Positions 6,733 through 61,339 are shown, counted from the stretch's first letter. The stretch: DNA of 64,000 nucleotides from Heterodontus francisci (GCF_036365525.1 NC_090405.1:49161749-49225748); one strand, 5' to 3'. Translations and numbers: made by a program. Notes: generated by a model not told the origin, from the letters alone.

Positions 6733-7065
6733 TTTAATTCATTCTCGGGATGCAAGCATCACTGGCAAGCCCAGCATTCATTACCCATCTCTAATTGCCC
6801 TTGAGAGCGTGGTGGTGAGTTGCCTTCTTGGCAACTGAGTGACTTGTTAAGCTATTTCAGAATACAGTTGAGTCAACCACATTGCTACGGGTCTGGAGTT
6901 ACGTATAGGTCAGACCAGGCAAGGATGGCAGATTCCCTTCCTTAAAGGGCATTAGTGAACCTGATGGGTTTTTACAACAATCCAGTAGTTTCACTGTCAC
7001 CATTACTGATACTGGCTTTTTAATTCTAGATTTATTTAATTAATCGAATTTAAATTCCCAGCTGC
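6733..7065 (-). mobile_element. SINE related to the 8470 element (core plus LINE-derived tail, head truncated)
   Basis: Reverse complement matches about 8555-8765 (core) joined to about 11615-11708 (tail) of the LINE at 8470. Confidence 0.8.
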
Positions 7066-7240: not shown

Positions 7241-8078
7241 AAGTAAACTTGTCACTCGAATACTCAACGGCCAGTGATAATGCAGCAGCCCAACAAGCTT
7301 AACATAAGTAATGTCCACTACAAATGTGAGCACTGTCAATTATAAAAGAAGAATTTCAACAGAAAGTGCATGCAAATGAGAGAATTTTAGAATATTAACA
7401 CATATCTTTTCTTCTTTGGCCTCCTTGTCTCGAGAGACAATGGGTAAGCGCCTAGAGGTGGTCAGTGGTATGTAAAATGTTCCTGTAATCTAGTCTGCAC
7501 TATTTTAATAAGAAAAACTTGCAGTAATGTTGTTGCATGGGAAGCGTTTCTACGAAGAACTGTGCAGAGAAAGAGTACAGAAGTGTATCGGTTATTGTCC
7601 CAAACTGGCAACCCAGAAACCATGAACTGAATTCAATAAATTTGGGGTTTGTAGGGTAGAACCAAAATAAAAAGTGACCATGAAAGCTACCAGATTGTCA
7701 TAAAAACTCATCTGATTTACTAGTGTCCTTTAGAAATATGAATCTGTCACCCTACCCAGTCTAGCCTTCGCGTGACACCAGTCCCACACCACACAGTTAA
7801 TTCTGAAAACCCTCCGAAGTGGCTGAGCAAGTGTCAATTGCGACACAATTGCTTCAGGAAAAAGACCCACCTACCACCTTTTCAGGGCAACTAGGAACAA
7901 ACATTAAGTGAAGCCTGGCCAATGAACCATATCCCAAGAAAAAAAATAGAATAAATGATCCTGGAGTGTTCCAAAAACAGTCACAAGCTTGCACTGAATC
8001 AGTGACTGCTTTAACTTAATGCTTGAGGAAGCATTACAATCCTGCAGTGCTCAGTACTTCAAAGTACTCACTTCAGTT

Positions 8079-8144: not shown

Positions 8145-8469
8145 AAGTACAGAAGTGTCAATATTTGCATGGGGGCCCTACACAGAAAAGTTTAGGTCAC
8201 TATACAATGAAGGTTCCTAATAAAGGCCATAAGGGGAAATCATATAATCATGCAGCACAGAGGGAGGCTATCCAGTCTCTTGTGTCTGTGCCAGTTCTTT
8301 GAAAAAGCTATACAATTAGTCCCACTCCCTCGCTTTTTGCCCACAGCCCTGAAAATGTTTCCTTTTCAAGTATATATCCAGTTACCTTCCCAGAGGCAAG
8401 TTCCTTTGTCAATGAAGCAGTGACAGAAAAATTAAACAGGCTACCAGCTCACCCTGGGTGGCACATCCT

Positions 8470-11400
8470 GGGGAGGCGGTGGCATAGTGGTATTGTCACT
8501 GGAGTAGTAACCCAGAGTATTGCTCTGGGGACATGGGTTCAAATCCCACCAGAAGGTGGAATTTGAATTCAATTAATAAATCTAGTCTAATGATGGTCAT
8601 GAAACCATTGTCGAATGTTGTAAAAACCCATCTGGTTCACGAATGTCCTTCAGGGAAGGAAATCTGCTGTCCTTACCTGGTCTGGCCTACATGTTACTCC
8701 AGATCCACAGCAATGTGCTTGACTCTTACATGCCCTCTGAAATGGCCTAGCATGCCACTCAGTTGTATCTAACCGCTACAAAGTCAATAAAAAGGAATGA
8801 AACCGGACGGACCACCCGGCATCAACCCAGAAACGACAACGGCAAACCCAGCCCTGTCGACCCTGCAAAGTCCTCCTTACTAACATCTGGGGGCTTGTGC
8901 CAAAGTTGGGAGAGCTGTCCCACAGACTAGCCAAGCAACAGCGTGACACAGTCATACTCACGGAATCATACCTTACAGACAATGTCCCAGACACTGCCAT
9001 CACCATCCCTGGGTATGTCCTGCCCCACCGGCAGGACAGACGCACCAGAGGTGGTGGCACAGTGGTATACAGTCAGGAGGAAGTTGCCCTGGGAGTCCTC
9101 AACATCGACTCTGGACCCCATGAAGATCAAACATGGACAAGGAAACCTCCTGCTGCTTACCACCTACCGCCCTCCCTCAGCTGATATGTCAGTACTCCTC
9201 CATGTTAAACAGCTCTTGGAGGAAGCACAGAGGGTGGCGAGGGCACAAAATGTACTCTGGGTTGAGGACTCCAAAGTCCATCACCAAGAGTGGCTCGGTA
9301 GCACCACTACTGACCGAGCTGGCCAAGTCCTAAAGGATATATCTGCTAGACTGGGTATGTGGCAGGTGGTGAGGCAACCAACAAGAGGGGAAAACATACT
9401 TGACCTCATCCTCACCAATCTGCCTGCCTCAGATGCATCTGTCCATGACAGTATTGGTAGAAATGACCGTCGCACAGTGCTTGTGCAGACGAAGTCCCGC
9501 TTTCACATTGAGGATACCCTCTATCGTGTTGTGTGGCGCTACCACCGTGCTAAATGGGATAGATTTTGAATGGATCTAGCAATGCAAAACTGGGCATACA
9601 TGAGGCGCTGTGGGCCATCAGCAGCAGCAGAACTGTACTCAACCACAATCTGTAACCTCATGGTCTGGCATATCCCCCACTCTACAATTACCATCAAGCC
9701 AGGAGACCAACCCTGGTTCAATGAAGTGCAGGAGGGCATGCCAGGAGCAGCACCAGGCATACCTCAAAATGAGGTGTCAACCTGGTGAAGCTACAACACA
9801 GGACTATCTGCGGGCCAAACTGCGTAAGCAGCATGTGACAGACAGAGCTAAGCGACCCCATAACCAACGGATCAGATCGAATCTCTGCAATCCTGCCACA
9901 TCCAGCCGTGAATGGTGGTGGACAATTAAACAACTAACTGGGAGGAGGTGGCTCCACAAATATCCCCATCCTCAATGATGGGGGAGCCCAGCACATCAGT
10001 GTGAAAGATAAGGCTGAAGCATTTGCAACAGTCTTCAGCCAGAAGTGCCGAGTTGATGATCCATCTCGGCCTCCCCCTGAAGTCCCCAGCATCACAGATG
10101 CCAGACTTCAGCCAATTCGATTCACTCCGCGTGATATCAAGAAACAACTGAAGGCACTGGATACTGCAAAAGCTATGGGCCCTGACAATATTCCGGCAAT
10201 AGTACTGAAAACCTGTGCTCCAGAACTTGCCGCACCCCTAGCCAAGCTGTTCCAGTACAGCTACAACACTGGCATCTACCTTGCAATGTGGAAAATTGTC
10301 AAGGTATGTCCTGTACACAAAATGCAGGACAAGTCCAACCCGGCCAATTACCACCCCATCAGCCTACTCTCAATCATCAGTAAAATGATGGAAGGTGTCA
10401 TCAACAGTGCCAACAAGCAGCACTTGCTTAGCAATAACATGCTCAGTGACGCTCAGTTAGGGTTCCGCCAGGGCCACTCAGCTCCTGACCTCATTACAGC
10501 CTTGGTTCAAACATGGACAAAAGAGCTGAACTCAAGAGGTGAGGTGAGAGTGACTGCCTTTGACATCAAAGCAGCATTTGACCGAGTATGGCATTAAGGA
10601 GCCCTAGCAAAACTGAGGTCAATGGGAATCAGGGGGAAAACCCTCCGCTGGCTGGAATCATAACTAGCGCAAAGGAAGATGGTTGTGGCTGTTGGAGGTC
10701 AATCACCTGAGCTCCAGGACATCACTGCAGGAGTTCCTCAGGGTAGTGTCCTAGGCCCAACCATCTTCAGCTGCTTCATCAATGACCTTCCTTCAATCAT
10801 TAGGTCAGAAGTGGGGATGTTTGCTGATGATTGCACAATGTTCAGCACCGTTCGTGACTCCTCAGATATTGAAGCAGTCCGTGTAGAAATGCAGCAAGAC
10901 CTGGACAATATCCAGGCTTGGGCTATAAGTGGCAAGTAACATTTGTGCCACACAAGTGCCAGGCAATGACCATCTCCAACAAGAGAGAATCTAACCATCT
11001 CCCCTTGACACTCAATGGCATTACCATCGCTGAATCCCCCACTATCAACATCCTAGGGGCTACCATTGACCAGAAACTGAACTAGAGTAGCCATATAAAT
11101 ACTGTGGCTACAAGAGCAGGTCACAGGCTAGGAATCCTGAGGCGAGTAACTCACCTCCTGACTCCCCAAAGCCTGTCCACCATCTACAAGGCACAAGTCA
11201 GGAGTGTGATGGAATACTCTTCACTTGCCTGGATGGGTGTAGCTCCAACAACATTCAAGAAGCTCGACACGATCCAGGACAAAGCAGCCCGCTTGATTGG
11301 CACCCCATCTACAAACTTTCACTCCCTGCACCACCGACGCACAGTGGCAGCAGTGCGTACCATTTATAAGATGCACTGCAGCAATGCACCAAGGCTCCTT

Positions 11401-11708
11401 CGACAGCACATTCCAAACTTGCGACCTCTACCAACTAGAAGGACAAGGGCAGCAAATGCATGGGAACACCATCACCTGCAAGTTCCCCTCCAAGTCACAC
11501 ACCATCCTGACTTGGAACTATATCGCCGTTCCTTCACCACCGTTGGGTCAAAATCCTGGAACTCCCTTCCTAACAGCACTGTGGGTGTACCTTCCCCAAA
11601 TGGACTGCAGCAGTTCAAGAAGGTAACTCACCACCACCTTCTCAAGGGCAATTAGGGATGGGCAATAAATGTTGGCCTGGCCTGCGATGCCCACATCCCA
11701 TGAATGAA
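8470..11708 (+). mobile_element. Near full-length CR1-group LINE (AP endonuclease plus RT, no ORF1) with a tRNA-derived SINE head; inactivated copy
   Basis: A box TGGCATAGTGG 8480-8490; B box GGTTCAAATCC 8536-8546. APE motifs (LLTNIWGL, ILTES, RGGG, YRPP, PTRGENILDL). RT motifs (KAMGPDNI, NYHPISLL, FDIKAAFD, GVPQGSVLGP, FADD) and WNSLP, then a short 3' tail. Several stops and frameshifts. Confidence 0.92.
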
Positions 11709-12239
11709 TTTTTAAAAAACATATGTTTACTTCTCAGTGGTAAGATTAAAAGCGACTTGGAAGAATCCTCTCTTGCTCTTGTTGGTGCAAGACCCGAGAC
11801 AACAACAATCATTCAAGAGGGAGAGAGGGGAGTTTGAAAAGGTGGGGGGGGAGTCAGGAGCAGTGAGACCAGGACACAGCAGACCAAAGGGTGGCGTAAG
11901 AACAATGGAGAAATAAGAAAATGAATGAAATAGGGGAGAAAGGAGAGAGAATGAGATCACAATTGAATATTGGACAGTACAAGAGAAAAGTGTGAAAAAC
12001 ATCGACGGATTGACGACGAGAGAAAGACAGATGACAAATCTGAGCTATTCATCTATGCCTCCTAATTATGTAATAGCAGATGCCTGAAGCAGCCTCCATC
12101 TCTGCAGAATCATGTTGCACACAAAAAATTAAAATCACTGAAAAATATATTCTTTTTAAAAACTCAAATGGAGAGAAGCTGGCTTACTTGTTATTGTTGG
12201 CATCTTTCCATCTATGAAATATGATGGACATGCAGCAAA

Positions 12240-14074: not shown

Positions 14075-15490
14075 GAGTCATTTTGCAGCTCAGAAGGAAG
14101 CCATTCAGCCCATCGAGTCCATGCCAGCTCTCCACAGAGCTATTCATTCAGTCTCACTCTTCCGCTCGATCCCCGTAGCCCTGCAAGTTTATTTCCTTGA
14201 AATGGCCATCCATTGATTCAAGTCTTTGATTGTCTCCGTTTCTACCACCCTGTGGACAACGGGTTCCAGGTCATTATTGCCTACTGCTTAAAAAGGTTCT
14301 TCCTCATGTTGCCCCTGCATCTCTTGCCCAAAACCTTGAATCCATGTCACTTAGTCCTTGAACCATTAGTTAATGGGAACAGTTTTTCCTTGGTTAACTT
14401 ATCTAAGCCTGTCATAATCTTGTACACTTCTGTTAAATCTCTCCTCAATCTCCTTTGTTCTAAGGAGAACAAACCCAATTTTTCCAACCTAAACCTTATA
14501 ACTAAAATCCCTCATCCCCGGAATCATTCTGGTAAATCTCCTCTGCGCCCTCTCAAGGACCCTTGCATCTTTCCTAAAGTGTGGAGACCAGAACTAGACG
14601 CAATACTCCAGTTGGGGCCTAACTAGAGTTTTTATAAAGGTTCAGCATAACTTCCCTGCTTTTGTACTCAATGCTTCTATTTATGAATCCCAAGATCCCA
14701 TGTGCTTTACTAACCACTCTCTCAATATGTCCTGCTATCCTCAAAGATCAATGCACATGAACCCCCAAGTCCTTCTGCTCCTGCACACTCTTTAGAACTG
14801 TGCCATTAAATATATATTGCCTCTCTCTATTTCTTCTGTCAAATTGCATCACCTCACACTTGCAGGTATTAAATTCCATTTGTCACCTTTTTGTCCAGTC
14901 TGCTCATCTTTGTCCTGTTGCAGGCAGTTCATATCATTAACTCTGTTCGCCACACCTCCAAAAGTGGTGTCATCAGCAAATCTTGAGATTCTATTCTTTA
15001 TTCCAAGATCCAAGTCATTTATATATAGAAAAATAAGCAGTGTTCCCAGCAGTGACCCTTGGGACACACCACTGTCTACCATCCTCCAGTCTGGAAAACA
15101 ACCATTTACTACAACTCGCTGTTTTCTGCCCTGAAGCCAATTTTTTATCCAAGCTGACACTAACCCTCCTATTCCATGAGCCTCAATTTTGTTAATCGGT
15201 CTTTTATGTGGTAGTTTATCAAATGCTTTCTTAAAATCTATATAAACAGCATCCACTATATTCCCTTCATCAACTTTCTCTGTTACTTCATCAAAAAAAA
15301 TCAATTAGATTAGTCAAGAGGATCTGCCTTTTGTAAATCCATGCTGGCTGTCCTTTATTAAATCAAAACTCTTCAAGTGCATGTTGATTTTTTTTCTCTG
15401 ATTATTGTTTCTAAAACCTTACCCACCACTGATGTTAAACTAACTGGCCTGTAGTTGCTATGGCTGTCCTTACACCCTTTCTTGAGTGAA
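14075..15490 (-). mobile_element. CR1-group LINE fragment
   Basis: Minus-strand RT motifs (YIDFKKAFD, GVSQGSLLG, FADD) followed by the ORF2 C-terminus and tail. Confidence 0.88.
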
Positions 15491-18412
15491 GTATATTTGA
15501 GACCGAGATCGATAGGCTTTTGGGCATTCAAGGAATCAAGGGTTATGGGGATAGAGCAGGAAAGTGGAATTGATACAGAAGATCAGCCATGATCATGCTG
15601 AATGGCACAACAGGCTCTAAGGGCCATATGGCCTACTCCCGCTCCTATTTCTGATCTCCACATTTAAAAATCAAAAAAAATTTGCACTGGCCTACTGAAG
15701 TTGCTCTGCCAGCAGAAATAAAGAAAAACAAGGATGCAAGTAACAAGCAAATATCTACAAGGCTTAAATATGCACATAACCAAAGCTTCACCACACAACA
15801 GATAAGGTTCAGCAAGATCACAAGGGCTCAAGAAATGCAAACACCACAAACCAGCATACAAGAAATATGAGTAATAGAATGGAGTTAACTTGTGGGCTCA
15901 GCTGCCATGGCGTGCAGAATGAATATCACCCACAGTCTACAGCTTGGACACCAGGACTTACATGGTTGAGAAGAGTGCAATACGCTCCATCTAATCTCAC
16001 ATTTAAAGAATGGATAGTTAGGGATGTTACTAGAGTGTGGCTGTATGCATAGAACTGTATATCAGCAACTACCAGCGTCTGCAGGAGACAAGAGAATGAA
16101 AGTGGAGGGCTGGGTGGGGGGGTGGGGGGTGAAGTAAGTAAAACATGATCAAAAGGAACCAAGGCACAAATAAAAAAAAACTGTTGGAAAGCTTTTAAAA
16201 AAAGACGTAAATCCTGCATAATATACCCAAGAACATTCAAGGCTCCAAACTTCAGTCACAATGTCAGCAACAAAATTGTTTCTTTACTGTAACGCCAAAC
16301 TATTTTAACGTTTAAGCTGTAAGCCTGGTCACCTGTTCTATATCAGGCAAACAAATAACCCGTTCTTTACTTCAGGCGGTAACAGGCATAACATATCCTT
16401 CACCCAAAACACCAAAGTTACTGCAACTCTCATTCTGGAACAATATAAAACTACAAACATTTATTGACGGTGGTGAAAGGTCAAGAGGAACCTGCAGAAA
16501 AGCTGTCAGCTGTTGACTGACTACTAAGTTCTCAGAAGAGAGCGTTTGATCCTCCCAGCACATAGACAAAAAAGTACGTACAGAAAAAAAGTAGAGCCTA
16601 TAAGTGGGTTCTTCAGTATTCTCTTCCACCGACATACTTCAATCCTGTCAAACTACAGTAAAGGACACACACTGTACCATTACTAAAATATACCGTGCTT
16701 AATGACACGATCATCTGACAAAGCAAAAATAGACCCCTTTCCACCCCGCTTAGCTGTCCAGCTATGTCTGCTTCCTCCTAATGATACAAACAGAAGTTCT
16801 TCTGGAAAGACACACAGACAATGTGACCTTCAGTCCTGCATGCTTCTTGAATTATAATCGCTCTGAAGATATGGTGACCACCAGATCTGCATGTTTGGCA
16901 CTGTGGAGAGGAATTATTCCAGCAGTGTTGCATGGTTACGGCAATCATTAAATCATGGTACTATTCACAAACGAACTGCCCTCAACATTACCAATGGTTA
17001 GCTCTCAAACTAATTACATTCTCCTGTTTGCACGGGGAAATGGCGAATTAGCATACCTACTCAAGTTGAGTCAGCTGCTTTCCCCTGCATTGTTAGAAAT
17101 CAGCACAAATCAAATATATAAAGTAATCACAGAACTGCTGGTAGTCTATAAGAACAAGTTTAAGAGTTGAACCCTGATTTAATATTTTAAGATCTCTAAA
17201 CATTTTTGGGAGTCCACAATATCAATGGAACTTTCTGAACTGAAGGTACAATTCTGCAGTAAAGGATTCAGTTCTAGGGTAATCTTTAATATGGTCCCAC
17301 TTTCAAATATCAAGGAGAATGAGCTTAAAGTCAAGAGCTTTACCATTGACTTACAATGTACCTATCCTTCAAAACAACACCACGTTACTGGATTCACCAT
17401 ACTGCAACAATATAGAACTCCAAATGTAGCCAGAGTTCAAGGGGACTCTGCAGCAAAGCAGACATTCTGCTCGTCCACCAATGGCTGACAAAGATTTTTA
17501 GCTGATTTTTTCCAGTATACAAAATAGTGTTGGGGCAGTACCACTTTACACACAGAACATACAGGCCTGGTGATTACCAGCTCATCAGAACCCTGGCTAA
17601 GGAACACGTCCTAGGCCACCTGGTTTAGCACAGGTTCCAATGACTATTAGATCAATGCACAGTACATTTGACAAGAGGGATGGGGGCACCCAAACTGTCA
17701 ACATTGTCAGATGTGTACAAAATTTTACTTTTAAGTTTACCTCCCAATTGCTCACAAAGCACAATTTAAAAATACCTGCCCTCTAATTTTCTGTTTCTCC
17801 CTTATTTGTTTTCTCATACTAGTTTTTACTACTTCCTCTTAAACTGAACCTGTTTGACACTGGCTGCTAAGATTTGCCACTTGAATATTCTCCCACTGCT
17901 TCTTCATGGTCTTTATTTTTCCAATCATTCACGAACCTCAACTCCTGCATGTCATTGTTGGTTAATTTCTGTCACTCAAGATCTAGTGACCAGTCTTCCG
18001 TATCGCCCCAGGTCATGTTCATGATTTCATGCCTCTCTGATTATCAACCTCCTGTGTTTTGCTCTACTTTTAGCGCCAACAAAACACAATCCCATAAATC
18101 AATCCCAACAAATTAAACACTGCTCAGATACCGCAGTGGAAAGAAAGACGTGAAACAAACAGCCCAGGACATCAACAATGATATAAATGAACAAATTCTG
18201 ACATTAATATGCTCAGGAAGCTTCTTGGGCAGATACCTACTTGCAGGAGACACACCTTGCCATTGTGTTCTATATTAGCTGTGAATCTGAGGTTTTCACT
18301 GTAGCCTTTTGCTCTATTTCTCTATCAACTGTTTCAACGACAAAGCCGGCTAAGCAAGGTCTTTTTTTTTATATTTGCGATTGCAGTGAGGGATATCAGT
18401 GTTGGCACCAAA

Positions 18413-21310: not shown

Positions 21311-21529
21311 AAATCCTATTTACTTTGCATTTCTGTGGCTTATTCTTGGTAATTACTACCTTCAGAATGGGTTATTCTCCCGCTCAAATACACACTGGAG
21401 CAATAGATTGCTATTTCCATCATACGGTTTACTTTTAGGGATCCAAAAATGACCATTCCAACCCCAAGTGAGCAAGAATGAAGTGAATGTAAACGGCTGA
21501 GAAGTGGATTGATATGCAAACCAAATTCC

Positions 21530-21900
21530 AATTCCTGGGACATGGGCCTCACTGGTGAGGTTGGCATCCATGCATTCATCATCCATCAATAGTTACCTTG
21601 ATAAGGTGGTGGTGGGCCACTTTGGAGAGCGGTTAAGAATCATCTACATTGGTGTAGGACAGGAGTCACATATAGGCCAGACCTGGCAAGTGTGGCAGAT
21701 TTCCAGGCCAAAATGACTTTAGAGAACCAGTTGGGCTTTTATGACAATTTGACAGCTTTAATCACATACTTTTCATTTCCAGAATTTTTTTTATTATAAC
21801 TTAAAATTCGCATACCGGCATGATGGGATTCAAACTCTCATTCTCCAGATTATTGGCCCAGGCCTCAGGATTACTCATCAAGTAACATACCACTACATAC
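21530..21900 (-). mobile_element. Degenerate SINE of the 8470/38040 family
   Basis: Core ggagtcacatataggccagacc...ggcagatttcc, head remnant gggattcaaactc...actac, and tail remnant ccttgataaggtggtggtg. Confidence 0.6.
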
Positions 21901-36309: not shown

Positions 36310-37731
36310 ATAGTAAAAGGATTTAAAACATAGAAGCTAAGATCATTGAAGGGCAAGACCTGAAAAATTGACCACCTTTTCTGAATTTAATGATTAACAG
36401 CTATAGATGGGAACAAATTCTAATCACAGGCTAATCACAGAGGTTCTTTTAACTTTGTGATGCCTTAGATTGTGGCATGCAATGCATTTGTTTCATCTGT
36501 TTGGCTTGCATAGGGCAATCAATGGGGAATTAAAATATGTATTTTTGCATATGGCACAGTTGTTCAATGAGAAAACCCCCTATCTGATGTCATCTTTAAG
36601 ATTTTAGTAAATATCTGATTGGTTTTCACCAAAATAGAGAGAGATGTCACATTGCAACATAAAACATAATAAATAACCACACAGTGGATAGCGTACATTA
36701 GTGTGATGGTTGTAGTAAAAATCTCACCATGGCTGACTTCAACACTACTCTGAAAGCACCCAATCCCATTTGATCTTGGAAGCTAAGCAGAGTCAGGCTG
36801 GGTTAGAACTTGCCTGGGAGAGCTTTTGAGAATACCAGACGCAATAGGCCACTTTCGTGATCCATGGACACTACAGGCTATAGAGTGTCTCCTAGATGCT
36901 AATATATTTAATTGTTGAGATATTTTTTTCTGTTGCTTCATTAAGCAAGTTAGTTTAATTGGATATTTTTGAGTTTTTTTATTACATTGGAAGTGTCCTA
37001 GGGCACCTGTTGCAATGCTATTGTGTTTGTTTTTGGTGACACTAGGGCACCTCCATGTCACTCCTATTGGTTCAATGAAAAATGGCCCAGGAGAAAGTAA
37101 TAATGCAAGCTGCTGGATTGTTGTGTAAGCCGACTTCTTTCGCTAATACCCTTCAAGAAAGGGAACCTTTCTAAACAGTTTCGTTTACACGCAGTCTCCA
37201 TTGTGCACTATGTGGTTGCCATCTGAAGTGGTGTAGCAAGCCAAGGCAATTAGGAATGGACAATAAATGTGGCTTTGACAGCATTACCCACATTTCTAAA
37301 AAGAAATAAAACAGAAAATAGTCCATTTTAATGGGGCAATTCTGTTGTTTTTATGGTATACTAATCACCAATATTACAATGCTACTGAGCTGCCCAAAAT
37401 AACACGTTCTCTTATGGTAGTGAAACTAATCTAGAATTGCTACAATGGACCAGTTCTGGGTGCTTTCCAATTTCCAATCTGTGTCTAAACAGTTTCTGAG
37501 TTTTACTTTTCTAGACCATATACACAGGTTGGTACTGATAACCAACCTAATGTCAACCCCCCAGTCTGATGAAAGGTACATGTGTCTGGTATGAAGTACA
37601 GGTATACAAGTTATTTGCATACCACATGGGCTTTTGAGAGGACTTCATTCTTGCCTCCATTCCTAGATAGAGGATTAGTGAGAGTTTTGCCCACCATAAG
37701 CTATTTGTGTGATGTTCATTTTATTTCCCAG

Positions 37732-38035: not shown

Positions 38036-38414
38036 TTCGTTCATGGGATGTGGGCGTCGCTGGCTAGGCCAGCATTTAGTGCCCATCCCTATTTGGCCTT
38101 GAACTGAGTAGCCATTTCAGAGGGCAGTTTAAGAGTCAACCACATTGCTGTGGATCTGGAGTCACATGTAGGCCAGACCAGGTAAGGATGGTAGATTTTC
38201 TTCCTTAAAGGACATTCGTGAACCAGATGGGTTTTTACAACAATCGGCAATGGCTTCACGGTCACACTCGACTAGCTTTTTTAATTCCAGATTTATTAGT
38301 TGAATTCAAATTTCACCATCTGCCGTGGTGGGATTCGAACCCATGTCCCCAGAGCATTAGCCTGGGCCTCTGGGATACCAGTCCAGTGACATTACCGCTA
38401 CGCCACTGTCTCCC
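38036..38414 (-). mobile_element. Full-length tRNA-headed SINE made of the head/core and the tail of the 8470 LINE
   Basis: Minus strand reads gggagacagTGGCGTAGCGG...GGTTCGAATCC...core...ctcagtt|caaggccaaatagggatgggcactaaatgctggcc...cccacatcccatgaa. Confidence 0.9.
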
Positions 38415-44499: not shown

Positions 44500-47480
44500 T
44501 GAACATACGAATTAGGAGCAGAAGTAGGCCATTTGGCCCCTCTAGCTTGCTTTGAAGGGTGACCCCTAATTTTAAAACAGTGCCCCCTAGTTCTGGACTT
44601 ACCCGCAAGAGGCAACATCCTTTCCACATCCACCTGGTCATGACCGTTCAGGATCTTATAAACTTCAGTCAAGTCACCCCCCACTCTTATAAACTCCAGT
44701 GAAAACAAGCCCAATCTGTGCAACCTTTCCTCATAAGACAACTCGCTCATTCCAGGTATCAGTCTAGTAAACCTCCTATGAACTGCCTCCGACACGTTTA
44801 CATCCTTCGTTAAATGAGGAGACCAAAACTGCACACAGTATTCGAGATGTGGTCCCACCAATGGCCTGTATAACTGAAGCATAACATCCTTACTTTTATT
44901 TTCAATTCCTGCCTTCTTTATGACTTGTTGTACCTGCATACTAACTTTTTGTGACTCATGCACTAGAACACCTAGATCCCTCTGCACCTTGGAATTCTGC
45001 AGTCATTCTAGGTTTAAGAAATACTCTTTTTTTTAATCTTCCTGCCAAAGTGAACAACTTCACATTTTGCCACATTATACTCAATCTGCCAGATTTTTGC
45101 CCACTCACTCAACCTATCTATATCGGTCTGCAACCTCCTTATGTCCTCATCACAACATACCTTCCTACCTATCTTTGTGTCATCTGCAAATTTAGCTACC
45201 AAGCCATCACTCCCTTCATCTAAGTCATTGATATAAATTGTAAAAAGTTGAGGCCCCAGCACAGACCCCTGAGGGACTCCGCTCGTCACATCCTGCCAAA
45301 CAGAAAAGGACCCATTTATGCATACTCTCTGTTTTCTGCCAGCCAGCCAATCTTCTATCCATGCTAATATGTTACCCCCTGCACCATGAGTTCCTACTTT
45401 GCGCAATAACCTTTTATGTGGCACCCTGTCAAATGCCTTCTGGAAATCCAAGTACAGTACGTCAATGGGCACCCCTTTATCCCCAGCGCATGTTACTCCT
45501 TCAGAGAACTCCAATAAATTGGTTAAACATGATTTCCCTTGCTCAAAACCATGCTGATTATTCCCGATTACCTTGAGTTTTTGTAAGTGCCCAGCTAGAG
45601 CCTCCTTAATGATCGATTCTAAACCCTTGCCCACGACAGACGTCAAGCTAAATGTCCTACAGTTACCTGTGTACTGCCTCCCCCACTTCTTGAATAGAGG
45701 GGTTTAATATGCTACTTTCCAGTCTGATGGAACCTTTCCAGAATCTAGCAAACTTTGAAAAATTAACAGCAACGCATTACTACCTCATTAACCACCTCTT
45801 TTAAGACCCTAGGATGAAGCCTATCAGGACTCGGGGACTTGTCAGCCTGCAGCTCCATCAGTTTCCTTATTATCTACCATTAACTCCCCATTCTCACTCT
45901 TTTCCTTTTTAAGTACCTGTTGAAACTCTTGCTATCTGTTTTTACATTTCTAGCTAGCTTCCTCTCATACTCTAATTTCTTTCTCCTGATTAACCTTTTA
46001 GTCATTCTCTGCCGTTCTTTATATTCTGACCAATCATCTGACCTGCCACTAATCTTTGCTCAATTATATGCTTTTTCCTTAAGTTTGATGCTTTCCTTAA
46101 CTTCTTTAGTTAACCACAGATGGTGGGTCCTCCCCGTAGTGTTCTTCTTTATCATAGGAATATACGTATCCAGAGTATTCTGAAATAACCCCTTAAACGT
46201 CTGTCACTGCTTCTCTATTGATCTATCTGCTAGCCTAGTAACCCAGTTCACTTCAGCTAGCTCAGCTTTCAAGTGCACATAGTTGCCCTTATTTACATTT
46301 AAAATACTAGTCTTAGACCCACTCTTCTCTCTTTCAAACTGGATGTAAAATTCAATCATATTGTGGTCGCTGCTACCTAGGGTGCCTTTAGTCTGAGGTC
46401 ATTAATTAATCCTGTCACATTACACAATACCAAGTCCAATATAACCTGCTCTCTGGTTAGTTCCAGAACGTGCTGCTCTAAGAAACTATCTTGAAAGCGT
46501 TCTATGAACTTCTCATCCAGGCTACTATTGCCAATCTGATCTTTCCAGTTTATATGTAGTTTAAAATCATGCATGATTATTGCTGTCCCTTTCTCACAAG
46601 CACCCAATACTACTTCTTGGATACTTAATCCTACATTATGGTTACTGTTAGGTGGGGGGGCTATAGACCACTCCCACTAGTGACATCTTTCCCCTACTAT
46701 TCCTCAACTCCACCCAAACCGATTCTACATCCTGATCTCCTGAACCAGGGTCATCTCCAACTATTGCACCAATGCTATCCTTGATTAACAGTGCTACCCC
46801 TCCACCTTTACCTAGCTTCCTATTCTTCTTGAATGTCATACACCCTTCAATATTCAGGACCCAATCCTTTTCATCCTGCAGCCACATCTTCGTAACGCCT
46901 ATCAGATCATATTTATTTACTTCACTGTGCGCTGTCAGTTCGTCTGCATTGTTATGCATTCTACATGTAATCAGATGCAGAGCCTTTAGTTTTGTCTTTT
47001 TGTTGTCTTTGTAACATCTTGTCTCGACTGTTGGTGTGTTCTTAGGTTTTTCTCTCTGTCCCTTCCTGCCATTCTCTGACCTTCATTTCCCATATTACCT
47101 TTCTACTCTCCTGCCTTGACTCTGCTGCTTGATTTGTTACATCTACCCAGGCTTGATCCTTCACCCCCTCCCCCCCCACTTGTTTAGTTTAAAGCCTTCT
47201 CTACTTCCCTAGTTATACGGTTTGCTAGAACACTGGTCCCAGCACAGTTCAGGGGCAGACCAGCCCAATGGTACAGCCTCCACTTTCCCCAGTACTGGTG
47301 CCAGTGCCCCACTAGCTGAAACCCACTTCTCCCACACCAGTCTTTGAGCCTTGTATTCATTTCACTAATCTTATGTGTCCACTGTCAATTGGTACGTGGC
47401 TCAGGTAATAATCCAGAGATTATTACCCTTGAGGTTCTGCTCTTCAATTTGGTGCCTAGCTCCTCATACTGTCAAAGCAG
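44500..47480 (-). mobile_element. CR1 LINE with ORF1 esterase remnant and a deleted, decayed ORF2, antisense in the last RCN2 intron
   Basis: 47180-47480 translates to an SGNH-like ORF1 end (KLKSRTSRVIISGLLP...WCGRSGF...HW). APE motifs (KGGGVAL, VESVWVEL, VVYSPP) and RT motifs (YLDFQKAFD, GVPQGSVLGP, FADD). Confidence 0.9.
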
Positions 47481-47854
47481 AATTTCATCAGTTCTGATGA
47501 AGGGTCACTGAGCCGAAACATTAACTCTGCTTCTCTCTCCACAGATGCTGCCAGACCTGCTGAGTATTTCCAGCATTTTTTGTTTTTATTATCACCAACT
47601 AACTGCCTACCTTGGAGTCAAGGGAAGACTCACCAGCTGCTGGAGGCTGCAAAAAATAGGAAAAGGAGCCCTTCTTTCCCCCTCTGCACCGAATTCCCAC
47701 ATGCACCAAATTTCCAGCTTCACTTTGGCAATGTCTCACTCAGGCAAATGTCTCCTCTCACTGCGTCCCCTCACTCAGATTAATATTCCTGACTTTGAGA
47801 GCATAAAATTTTAGAGGGTGAAAAGGTTTTATTCCCTAGAAGTTTCGCCAAAAA

Positions 47855-59230: not shown

Positions 59231-61339
59231 ACTTCAACTTTATTACTTGTAATAACAAATGCAGGTTTAGGAAAAAAATGTATCAGCAGTTACAAGTGAA
59301 ATTGGCTTCTTTTGGTTAATAAAGTTATGGTTGAACTGAAAGTCCCATTGAGTTTAGATGGCAGTGCGTGTGTTCTAAACCTACTTTATCAGATACAGAG
59401 CAATGAAAGAGAAACCTATTACTGTGGTAATACTACTTAGATTGCGAGTGTAAGGAGTTAATTCAATAGGCTTTTAAAAGAATTTGATAACTTCAGTCCA
59501 CATAAACTGAGAAAAAAAGATTTTTCATACCAAATGGAAATACATTCATTGCCCACATGAGGGCAGCTGTTTGCGTAGACCATAGTCGCAGCTGATGCTA
59601 ATGTTATGAGGAAGGGTAACAAGACCAGAAATGTTATCCCTACCTTCCTCTCTGTGCAGATGCTGTCTGACCTGCCGAGTGTTTCCATCATTTTCTGTTT
59701 TATTTGTGTTTGTAGAAATGGAGAGCCTTCGTTAAGTGCAAATTCTAACCTAACATTCTAACCTTTCAGAAAGAATGTTAAACCGGAATCTGTCTGTAAA
59801 AGATCAAAATGGCAAAATCTGGGAGAGAAAAAGTGGGTAGTTCTGTTATTCTAGCCAACATTCCGTTTCAATCACATAATCAAAAACAACAACTTACATT
59901 TATATAATGTCTTTAATGAAACATCCCAAAATGCTTCACAGGAATTTTAGCAAACAAAAGTTGACACCAAGCCACATGGAGATATTAGGGCAGGTGACCA
60001 ACAGCTTAGAGAAAGAGTTCAAAAGAAAGAGAGGCTTGAATTTATATAGTGTTTCCATGACCTTAAGATGTCCCAAAGTGTTTTACCACTAATTTTATAC
60101 TTTATTTGAAGTGCTGTCACTGTTGTGATGCAGGAAAGTTTTAAGAAGCATCTTAAAGCGGGGGGGGGGGGGGGGGGGGAGGTAGGGGAGCAGAGAGGTT
60201 TAAGGAGGGAATTCTAAAACTTTGGGCAATAACTGACATTTATCTGACATTTGTGGGTCTCTACTGTGTGAAAATTAGCTGTCATATATGCCTATTTAAA
60301 ACAGACTACACTCAAAAACAATTTCCTGGTTGTAAAGTGTTAAAGAAATGAAAGGTGCTATATAAAAGCTGGTTCTTTCTTGTTCTCTGTACCATCTCGT
60401 TTTTTAACTGACTAGTCAATAATTAAGTTATGACTCCATGTAGAAATGATGTTACTTGCATTGGACTGCAGGCCAGGCTTCCTGTTTAAAAACAGAAAAT
60501 CAACATGTGCCAAATGTTTAAGCTCAATTCAGTCACTTCTAGTTCTAAAATCAGCAGCTCTGAATTTTTTTTTGTTGCAAACACCCCTGCAGCAGTTAGT
60601 ACAAGCACAAGCTGCTCTGGTTAAGAGTGGGTGTGAAATGGAGAGAAGACTTGCAACACAATGAAAGGCTTTCGGAAAATTTTATTCATGATATGTGGAT
60701 GACACTGGCAAGGTTGTATTTATTGCCAATCTCTAGTTGTACTGAAAAGATAGTGGTTGGCCTTGGCCTTGAACCACTGCCATAACTGTGTTGGGGAAGG
60801 AATTTCAGGATGTTGATCCAGCGATGATGAAGGAACTGCACTATATGTCCAAGTCAAGATGGTGTTTAATTGTGCTGGGAACTTCAAGAAGGATTTCTAG
60901 TAGCATTGTTGCTCTTGTCCTTCTCAGGGTCGAAAGACACAGGAAAGGATGTTGCCTACCACTTGCCCATCTAAACTCGAGTTATCCAGGTTCTGCTGTG
61001 AGTTGACAAGGGTTGTTTCATTTTTGGAGTAGTTGTGAAGGAGCTGAACACTAGAATAGTCATTGAACAGTCCCACTTGACCTTACAATGAAGGGAAAGT
61101 TCATGATGAAGTAGCTGCAGATGGTTGGGCTGGAGATGCTATCCTGAGAAACTCCTGAGAAAATGTTGTGGGGTTGTAATGATTGGCCTCTGACAATCAG
61201 AGCCATCTTTTGCATCAGATATGACTCCTGCCACTCGAGGTTTTGGTCTTTGGCCCTTATTCACTTCATTTTTGCTGGGGCTCCTTGGTGTATCAAACCC
61301 AATTACTCCCCTGGCATTCACCTCATAGAATGATTTTGT

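Follow-up and report, generated by a model that had tools for sequence, protein, structure and literature searches.

Results

A full-length LINE with a tRNA-derived head

The window analysed here, a 64,000-nt stretch of the Heterodontus francisci genome, contains a dead, full-length copy of a LINE and two short derivatives of the same kind of element (Table 1). The LINE has a family length of 3289 nt in this genome and consists of a tRNA-derived head, a conserved core of about 190 nt, one endonuclease-reverse transcriptase (APE-RT) frame and a 3' UTR with AATAAA at 11664, about 45 nt ahead of the A tail. Pfam RVT_1 and Exo_endo_phos fall in a single APE-RT frame in two natural copies with long open frames (L046 and L031). 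The initial annotation of this DNA had held that the copy is dead, that there is neither space for an ORF1 nor a SINE tail from core to ORF, and that the 3' tail is that of the short elements. Each of these points was borne out: the window copy has five frameshifts and four premature stops, one APE-RT frame was found, and the tail is identical in kind to that of the short elements.

Table 1. Features of the LINE copy and of its short derivatives in the window.
Feature	Position	Strand	Remarks
Zenon LINE copy, dead, full-length	8470..11709	+	3240 nt; 94% to family majority
tRNA-derived head, long variable arm	8470..8556	+	8- and 5-nt deletions in the window copy
Pol III A box	8480..8490	+	motif present in 29/36 family heads
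Pol III B box	8536..8546	+	motif present in 31/36 family heads
Core (5' UTR), conserved, common to short elements	8557..8741	+	
In-frame AUG (strong context) and UAG, one sense codon between them	8742..8750	+	likely ORF start
ATG proposed in the initial annotation	8797..8799	+	out of frame; opens a 46-codon overlapping frame
AP endonuclease domain	8867..9468	+	Pfam PF03372, PF14529 (L046, L031); frameshift at 9127 in the window copy
Reverse transcriptase domain	10320..11059	+	Pfam PF00078, E = 2.7e-37 on L046; stops at 10595 and 10661, frameshift at 10925
ORF stop, 54-nt 3' UTR, short end repeat, A tail	11653..11719	+	common to short elements
Short internally deleted derivative	38036..38414	-	head and core joined to last ~68 nt; younger family
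Short internally deleted derivative	6736..7025	-	core joined to last ~95 nt; older family

Both boxes of the head match the type-2 Pol III A/B-box consensus and lie in a tRNA-like 5' head, the make-up of a type-2 Pol III unit. In 20 of the 40 family loci ARAGORN called a tRNA, with a long variable arm and in 19 cases as Thr(AGT); it called none in the window copy with its two head deletions. As the best Rfam match of the head is a weak one to tRNA-Sec (E = 0.088, below the gathering score), the isotype is uncertain. A strict B-box motif was found upstream in only 12 of 30 older copies. ARAGORN called no tRNA in any of the 25 metagenome loci given to it, many of which may lack their 5' ends.

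The same window carries two canonical CR1 families, at 44500-47500 (-) and 14400-15500 (-), with thousands of first-look candidates; they served as controls in the analyses below. The CR1 ORF1 that had been placed at 47180-47480 gave no Pfam match (47184-47471), and this segment resembles what we take to be an esterase ORF1 remnant. At 60760-61290 (-) lies a very old Zenon-like fragment with 47% protein identity and no close relatives among the scored matches.

The element forms a family in the H. francisci genome

A search of the 6.0-Gb genome with a 201-nt query across the core-ORF junction gave 1489 first-look candidates. Leaving the window aside, 39 matches were scored, and every one of them extends across the junction, at 94-95% identity. 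The 5' base of the window copy (8468-8474) is shared by 20 of 29 other loci, with the remaining nine cut inside the core, and the upstream flanks of family loci are unrelated to one another. As the junction recurs genome-wide, the element represents a real family and not a one-off chimera.

Among the 40 loci that we fetched, which are best matches and not a random sample, 26 are uninterrupted full-length copies and none is intact. In the full-length copies inspected, the end repeat is followed by A runs, that is, a poly(A) tail; a search for target-site duplications in 13 copies gave nothing above mismatched pairs (mean 2.8 vs 2.6 nt). The majority ORF is open and shows third-position bias between subfamilies. 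The differences of the older subfamily lie mostly at third codon positions (55/87, and 75/112 in a second comparison), and this subfamily keeps the tRNA head, in a dogfish-like form. It was reached through locus L117; searches through L129 gave the young family. Since copies share ancestry and recombine, the counts over copies reported here are not independent of one another. Four sequencing runs, three of which are RNA by conjecture only, have contigs that span all 30 bins and include head-to-tail joints; start, strand and level are not visible in contigs, and we did not use them as evidence.

Inverted segments of the same element joined at the 5' part, in a twin-priming-like arrangement, were seen in L006, L026/L045, L008, L002 and L003.

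The element belongs to elasmobranch Zenon

By comparison of its 5' end, the element is the elasmobranch Zenon LINE, which has been published in the form of consensus sequences from five shark and ray species. By eye, its first 400 nt match seven Zenon consensus sequences from elasmobranchs, one each from white shark, whale shark, catshark and stingray and three from dogfish, which we located by core words in Table S2 of PMC13343379 (Stuart et al. 2026). All seven start with the same head, core and junction over these 400 nt, and the 5' ends of hagfish and coelacanth Zenon, compared in the same way, differ from them. The published CarCar, RhiTyp, ScyCan, HypSab and SquAca_Zenon thus represent the same family, with one ORF, an A tail and no ORF1, and five of the seven consensus sequences measure 3.2-3.3 kb (PMC13343379).

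The absence of ORF1, which the initial annotation had considered unusual, proved to be no peculiarity of this element: every Zenon element lacks ORF1 and has a poly(A) tail (PMC13343379). It is an ancestral, general trait of Zenon, and capture of the head is not its cause. According to the same paper, no repeat repository contains the elasmobranch elements. In its main text the words tRNA, polymerase, Pol III, promoter, start codon and readthrough do not occur; the head, the terminator avoidance, the AUG-UAG start and the derived SINEs, which that text does not give, are described here. The tRNA head of elasmobranch Zenon thus seems to have gone unremarked in print. We found no description of a Pol III-transcribed LINE in the literature surveyed, a survey outside which Repbase, Dfam and subscription journals fell.

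In a phylogeny of 125 RT regions, the element grouped with unnamed proteins and one element from a butterfly (17 members, support 0.995), and the two CR1 families of the same genome fell elsewhere. The tree held no named Zenon reference, and the name Zenon rests on the 5' match to the published consensus; we infer that the Colias element in this clade (P0020) is a Zenon. Like the shark element, lepidopteran Zenon has one ORF and a length of about 3.3 kb (Wang et al. 2019, PMC6740152). The lepidopteran SIDE Persaeus is a short internal deletion of Zenon that retains the 5' UTR, ORF start, ORF end and tail; it is described as having no tRNA homology or Pol III promoter (PMC6740152), whereas the shark LINE and its deletions carry one.

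The nearest precedent for such a head is RTE-1_DAn with the elements related to it, LINEs in Repbase that hold tRNA-like sequence (Kojima 2018, PMC5786205); unlike Zenon, RTE-1_DAn belongs to the RTE clade, and we draw the likeness from a one-sentence description in that paper and not from sequence. The bipartite tRNA SINEs Bov-tA, SINE2_Gav, CoeSINE4 and SINE2-1_ACar, which consist of a head, a 5' part of a LINE and its 3' end, share their layout with the shark short elements (PMC5786205, PMC4494074). In those SINEs the head joined a non-coding derivative of an RTE or Vingi parent (PMC5786205, PMC4494074), whereas in the shark the coding parent is itself headed.

Two NCBI gene models, P0014 from sevengill shark and P0099 from manta ray, contain pieces of the ORF at 84-87% identity inside unrelated genes. 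These models are likely annotation artefacts, and by their similarity they point to the presence of the family in two more species.

The core reads as the 5' UTR of the LINE

The core had been likened to the Meta domain of SINEs. By eye, we saw no likeness to Meta, Deu or UCON3 as printed in PMC7245038, two core words had no match in that paper, and a Meta motif matched neither the head nor the core of L031; we therefore rejected all three as the identity of the core. MetaSINE, DeuSINE, V-SINE (HE1/HER1) and SlmI have a tRNA head, a conserved body and a LINE-type tail, as do the shark elements. MetaSINE carries a 66-bp Meta domain after its head (PMC7245038), from which the present core differs by eye. 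A core pattern had no match in the metagenome contigs. As the core runs through the LINE's own start codon, it reads as the 5' UTR of the LINE. An HDV-like ribozyme at the junction was also considered and rejected, as the spacing does not fit by eye and Rfam returned nothing.

The initial annotation had described a SINE-headed LINE family. The tRNA-derived 5' end with its A and B boxes, and the ability of the family to shed its own short elements, stand; the start codon, the Meta label and the oddity of the missing ORF1 do not.

The ORF avoids Pol III terminators

Pol III terminates at TTTT and, less efficiently, at TVTTT (PMC8466645), and internal oligo-T has been taken as ground to exclude Pol III (Kojima 2015). 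The majority sequence of 15 copies (3289 nt) contains no T run of four or more (T4), in comparison to 14 such runs of A, 13 of C and 8 of G. T4 was again absent from the majority of a second copy set, which had three differences, and from the older subfamily. We compared the ORF with synonymous shuffles in which amino acids and codon usage were held fixed, and found 4 TTT runs where 12.8 were expected, with none of 2000 shuffles as low. TTTT and TVTTT together number 0 in the 2.9-kb ORF (expected 4.0, P = 0.007); the element's opposite strand has 22 of them. T4 alone (0 vs 2.05 expected, P = 0.09) is not significant with codon usage fixed, and the terminator signal rests on TTT and on TTTT and TVTTT combined. 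With no T4 in 3289 nt and no TVTTT in the ORF, the element lacks internal terminators apart from one moderate TATTT inside the head of the young majority, which is absent in 24 of 74 copies and in the older subfamily.

The avoidance is also visible site by site. At synonymous C/T sites, T was found at 4 of 39 positions where TTT would form and at 203 of 482 elsewhere (OR 0.16, P = 2.8e-5). The same test was null for C (OR 0.75) and G and marginal for A (OR 0.64, P = 0.04). We do not attribute the loss of T runs to avoidance of the element's own T/A target: A runs are numerous and the loss affects one side alone, which makes this cause unlikely.

Control elements largely lack this pattern. Over 1.7 kb and 2.0 kb, the two CR1 ORFs of the same genome contain 11 and 9 T4 runs, respectively (OR 0.65 and 0.49). 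A milder avoidance of TTT was nevertheless seen in family famC (OR 0.49, P = 0.013), which tempers the contrast. From 80 metagenome loci we used the 57 with a clean RT ORF of 400 or more codons, dropping 23; each contains at least one terminator, and their median OR is 1.01 (lowest 0.46), although one of them, the 1.2-kb ORF of L176, is like Zenon in having no T4. Most control ORFs are T-richer than that of Zenon, which is 19.7% T. L156, which falls in the same RT clade and itself gave no B box, has 20 T4 runs. Inspected by eye over their first 400 nt, none of the 7 headed Zenon consensus sequences in PMC13343379 shows a T4, and all 3 headless ones do. A Pol III terminator-free ORF and synonymous avoidance of TTT are what is new here.

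A Pol III model for transcription of the LINE

The absence of terminators from the ORF, together with the synonymous avoidance of TTT, points to full-length transcription by Pol III, and through it there is indirect support for the head serving as the promoter of the LINE. We propose that Pol III transcribes the whole 3.3-kb element from the tRNA-derived head, with a probability of roughly 0.6. TFIIIC would bind the internal boxes, and Pol III would cross the terminator-free ORF into the A tail and flank; as transcription would start from internal boxes, each full-length copy would bring its own promoter. The encoded protein would copy RNAs with the shared 3' tail by target-primed reverse transcription, without ORF1. 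Retrotransposition of Pol III RNAs requires only ORF2p (PMC2666806).

The best-placed alternative, which we nevertheless regard as unlikely, is that Pol II transcribes the element from the core or by read-through from the host, the head being a passenger or a TFIIIC-bound insulator or enhancer, and T runs being avoided for a Pol II reason, for instance as splice-acceptor tracts or U-rich cleavage signals. It is established that a capped RNA is the easiest source of a 978-codon protein; the context of the AUG at 8742 is strong for scanning, and the AATAAA near the A tail, the TATTT in the head of most young copies and the low overall T content of the ORF would all suit Pol II. Two further AATAAA in the 5' region are, however, unfavourable to it. 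Also against it, the depletion is specific to T and to the sense strand, with C runs normal, and neither the CR1 controls, which are of Pol II type, nor L156, a headless member of the clade, shows it. Furthermore, the head is found at the exact 5' position in two subfamilies and five species.

A likely ORF start at an AUG followed by UAG

The ATG at 8797, earlier proposed as the start, is out of frame with the endonuclease; of 33 older copies only 4 share this ATG, and 23 have ATA. We considered a start at this ATG with a -1 frameshift into the endonuclease and ruled it out, as the older subfamily has ATA there. The AUG at 8742, which is in frame and has a strong Kozak context, occurs in 83 of the 85 young copies and in 28 of the 33 older ones. 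After the UAG, 975 codons of the family frame are open, the first internal Met being residue 284. Separated from the AUG by one sense codon, UAG is found in 66 of 85 young copies; in 11 others it is GAG and in 6 CAG, and 5 of the 33 older copies carry GAG or CAG.

RNAs made by Pol III carry no cap and serve poorly as mRNAs, which counts against the Pol III model. Under that model, translation of such an RNA would begin inefficiently at the AUG at 8742 and continue beyond the UAG by read-through or re-initiation; in the GAG and CAG alleles the frame would be fully open. The simplest reading of these sequences is that the UAG keeps enzyme production low by acting as a leaky stop, and that open alleles arise anew or recombine. 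In the 40-codon leader we looked for codon-position bias and found none, and the AUG-UAG, by eye, is in frame in the consensus of three species and one base off in those of whale shark and dogfish-1 (PMC13343379); for both reasons the translation step is weaker than the rest of the model.

A reading that concerns translation alone, and is compatible with Pol III transcription, is that the UAG majority constitutes a non-autonomous, very long SINE mobilised in trans by the GAG/CAG alleles or by an unseen helper. The position of the UAG two codons past the only plausible AUG in most young copies would fit such passengers, as would the sense alleles, whose frequency (17/85) far exceeds the background change of 2.8% at T sites. 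Yet UAG is the majority in both the old and young subfamilies and in 6 of the 7 consensus sequences in PMC13343379 while the ORF retains its third-position bias, and the sense alleles sit on mixed sequence backgrounds, for which reasons we think this reading improbable. Recombination could maintain helper and passengers alike.

The head may also be considered as an RNA

Under a further alternative, which we hold to be quite improbable as a replacement for the Pol III model, the head works at the RNA level: its cloverleaf would cut the element from read-through RNA, recruit ribosomes or protect the 5' end. Other ORF1-less LINEs use HDV-like ribozymes in a comparable way. In intact copies the whole cloverleaf is maintained and not the boxes alone, and the 5' 460 nt fold better than shuffled sequence (z = -2.5, 3 of 100 shuffles), as this alternative would predict. 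Against it, the first base of copies lies some 6 nt upstream of the acceptor stem as predicted, in the manner of SINEs, and not at the RNase P cut, and an RNA-level function leaves the terminator avoidance of the ORF unexplained. It can coexist with Pol III transcription. A whole cloverleaf could also be removed by RNase Z, which would count against the Pol III model.

Finally, a one-off chimera, in which a SINE inserted beside or was template-switched onto a 5'-truncated LINE, has parallels in the single tRNA-LINE chimeras at 21 human loci (PMC13174262) and is refuted by the same junction at all 39 other scored loci and in five species.

Short elements are internal deletions of the LINE

The short elements in the window belong to at least two self-propagating families. 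In one, nt ~322 of the LINE is joined to ~3195 in 26 of 30 loci; in the other, ~304-321 is joined to 3222 in 30 of 30. We found three further single junctions among 30 core matches. All short elements reach the LINE start region and retain the last ORF codons, as does the derivative at 6736..7025, and they therefore read as internal deletions of the LINE. By this structure the short SINEs are internal deletions of Zenon, as Persaeus is, with the addition of a Pol III head. The ~390-nt derivatives are short and non-coding, as SINE2 elements are, and the 3.3-kb coding LINE is not. According to the Pol III model, internal deletions that retain head, UTR and tail would become self-propagating SINE-like families.

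We analysed recombination in 74 young copies at 31 sites over family nt 1-1800. Linkage among sites decays with distance (r2 from 0.38 to about 0.1), and the four-gamete test fails for 90-95% of the site pairs separated by more than 20 nt. This suggests that the source elements are mosaics, with frequent recombination or template switching among LINE copies. As source elements recombine, the headed LINE could have originated either by a headed SINE moving onto a LINE or by fusion of a tRNA to a LINE.

Older, much diverged short elements consisting of core plus tail occur in the window at 7640-7960 (+), 21480-21800 (-) and 37100-37320 (+). These may date the core before the present LINE subfamilies.

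Discussion

LINEs are classically Pol II mRNAs and SINEs non-coding Pol III RNAs. If the Pol III model is true, a LINE with thousands of copies on a tRNA promoter would constitute a natural multi-kilobase Pol III mRNA, in which the range of Pol III, the translation of uncapped RNA and the question of whether the polymerase sets the need for ORF1 (PMC2666806) could be tested. We see about even odds for the wider proposition that an autonomous coding LINE has used Pol III through the whole history of sharks and rays, with an uncapped RNA, a synonymous purge of terminators, a leaky UAG, no ORF1 and repeated shedding of SINEs. SINEs that arise by plain deletion of a headed LINE would take a direct route from LINE to SINE, and part of the sequence labelled as SINE in shark genomes would be the 5' end of a LINE.

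The terminator test used here is applicable to any LINE library in search of further cases. In a 1.2-kb RT ORF from an unrelated host (L176, RCNA010015835.1), on a contig that lacks the 5' end of the element, we observed no T4 and avoidance of T at 8 of 8 risky sites (P = 0.02); this element could be a second Pol III-type LINE, or the pattern could be due to chance.
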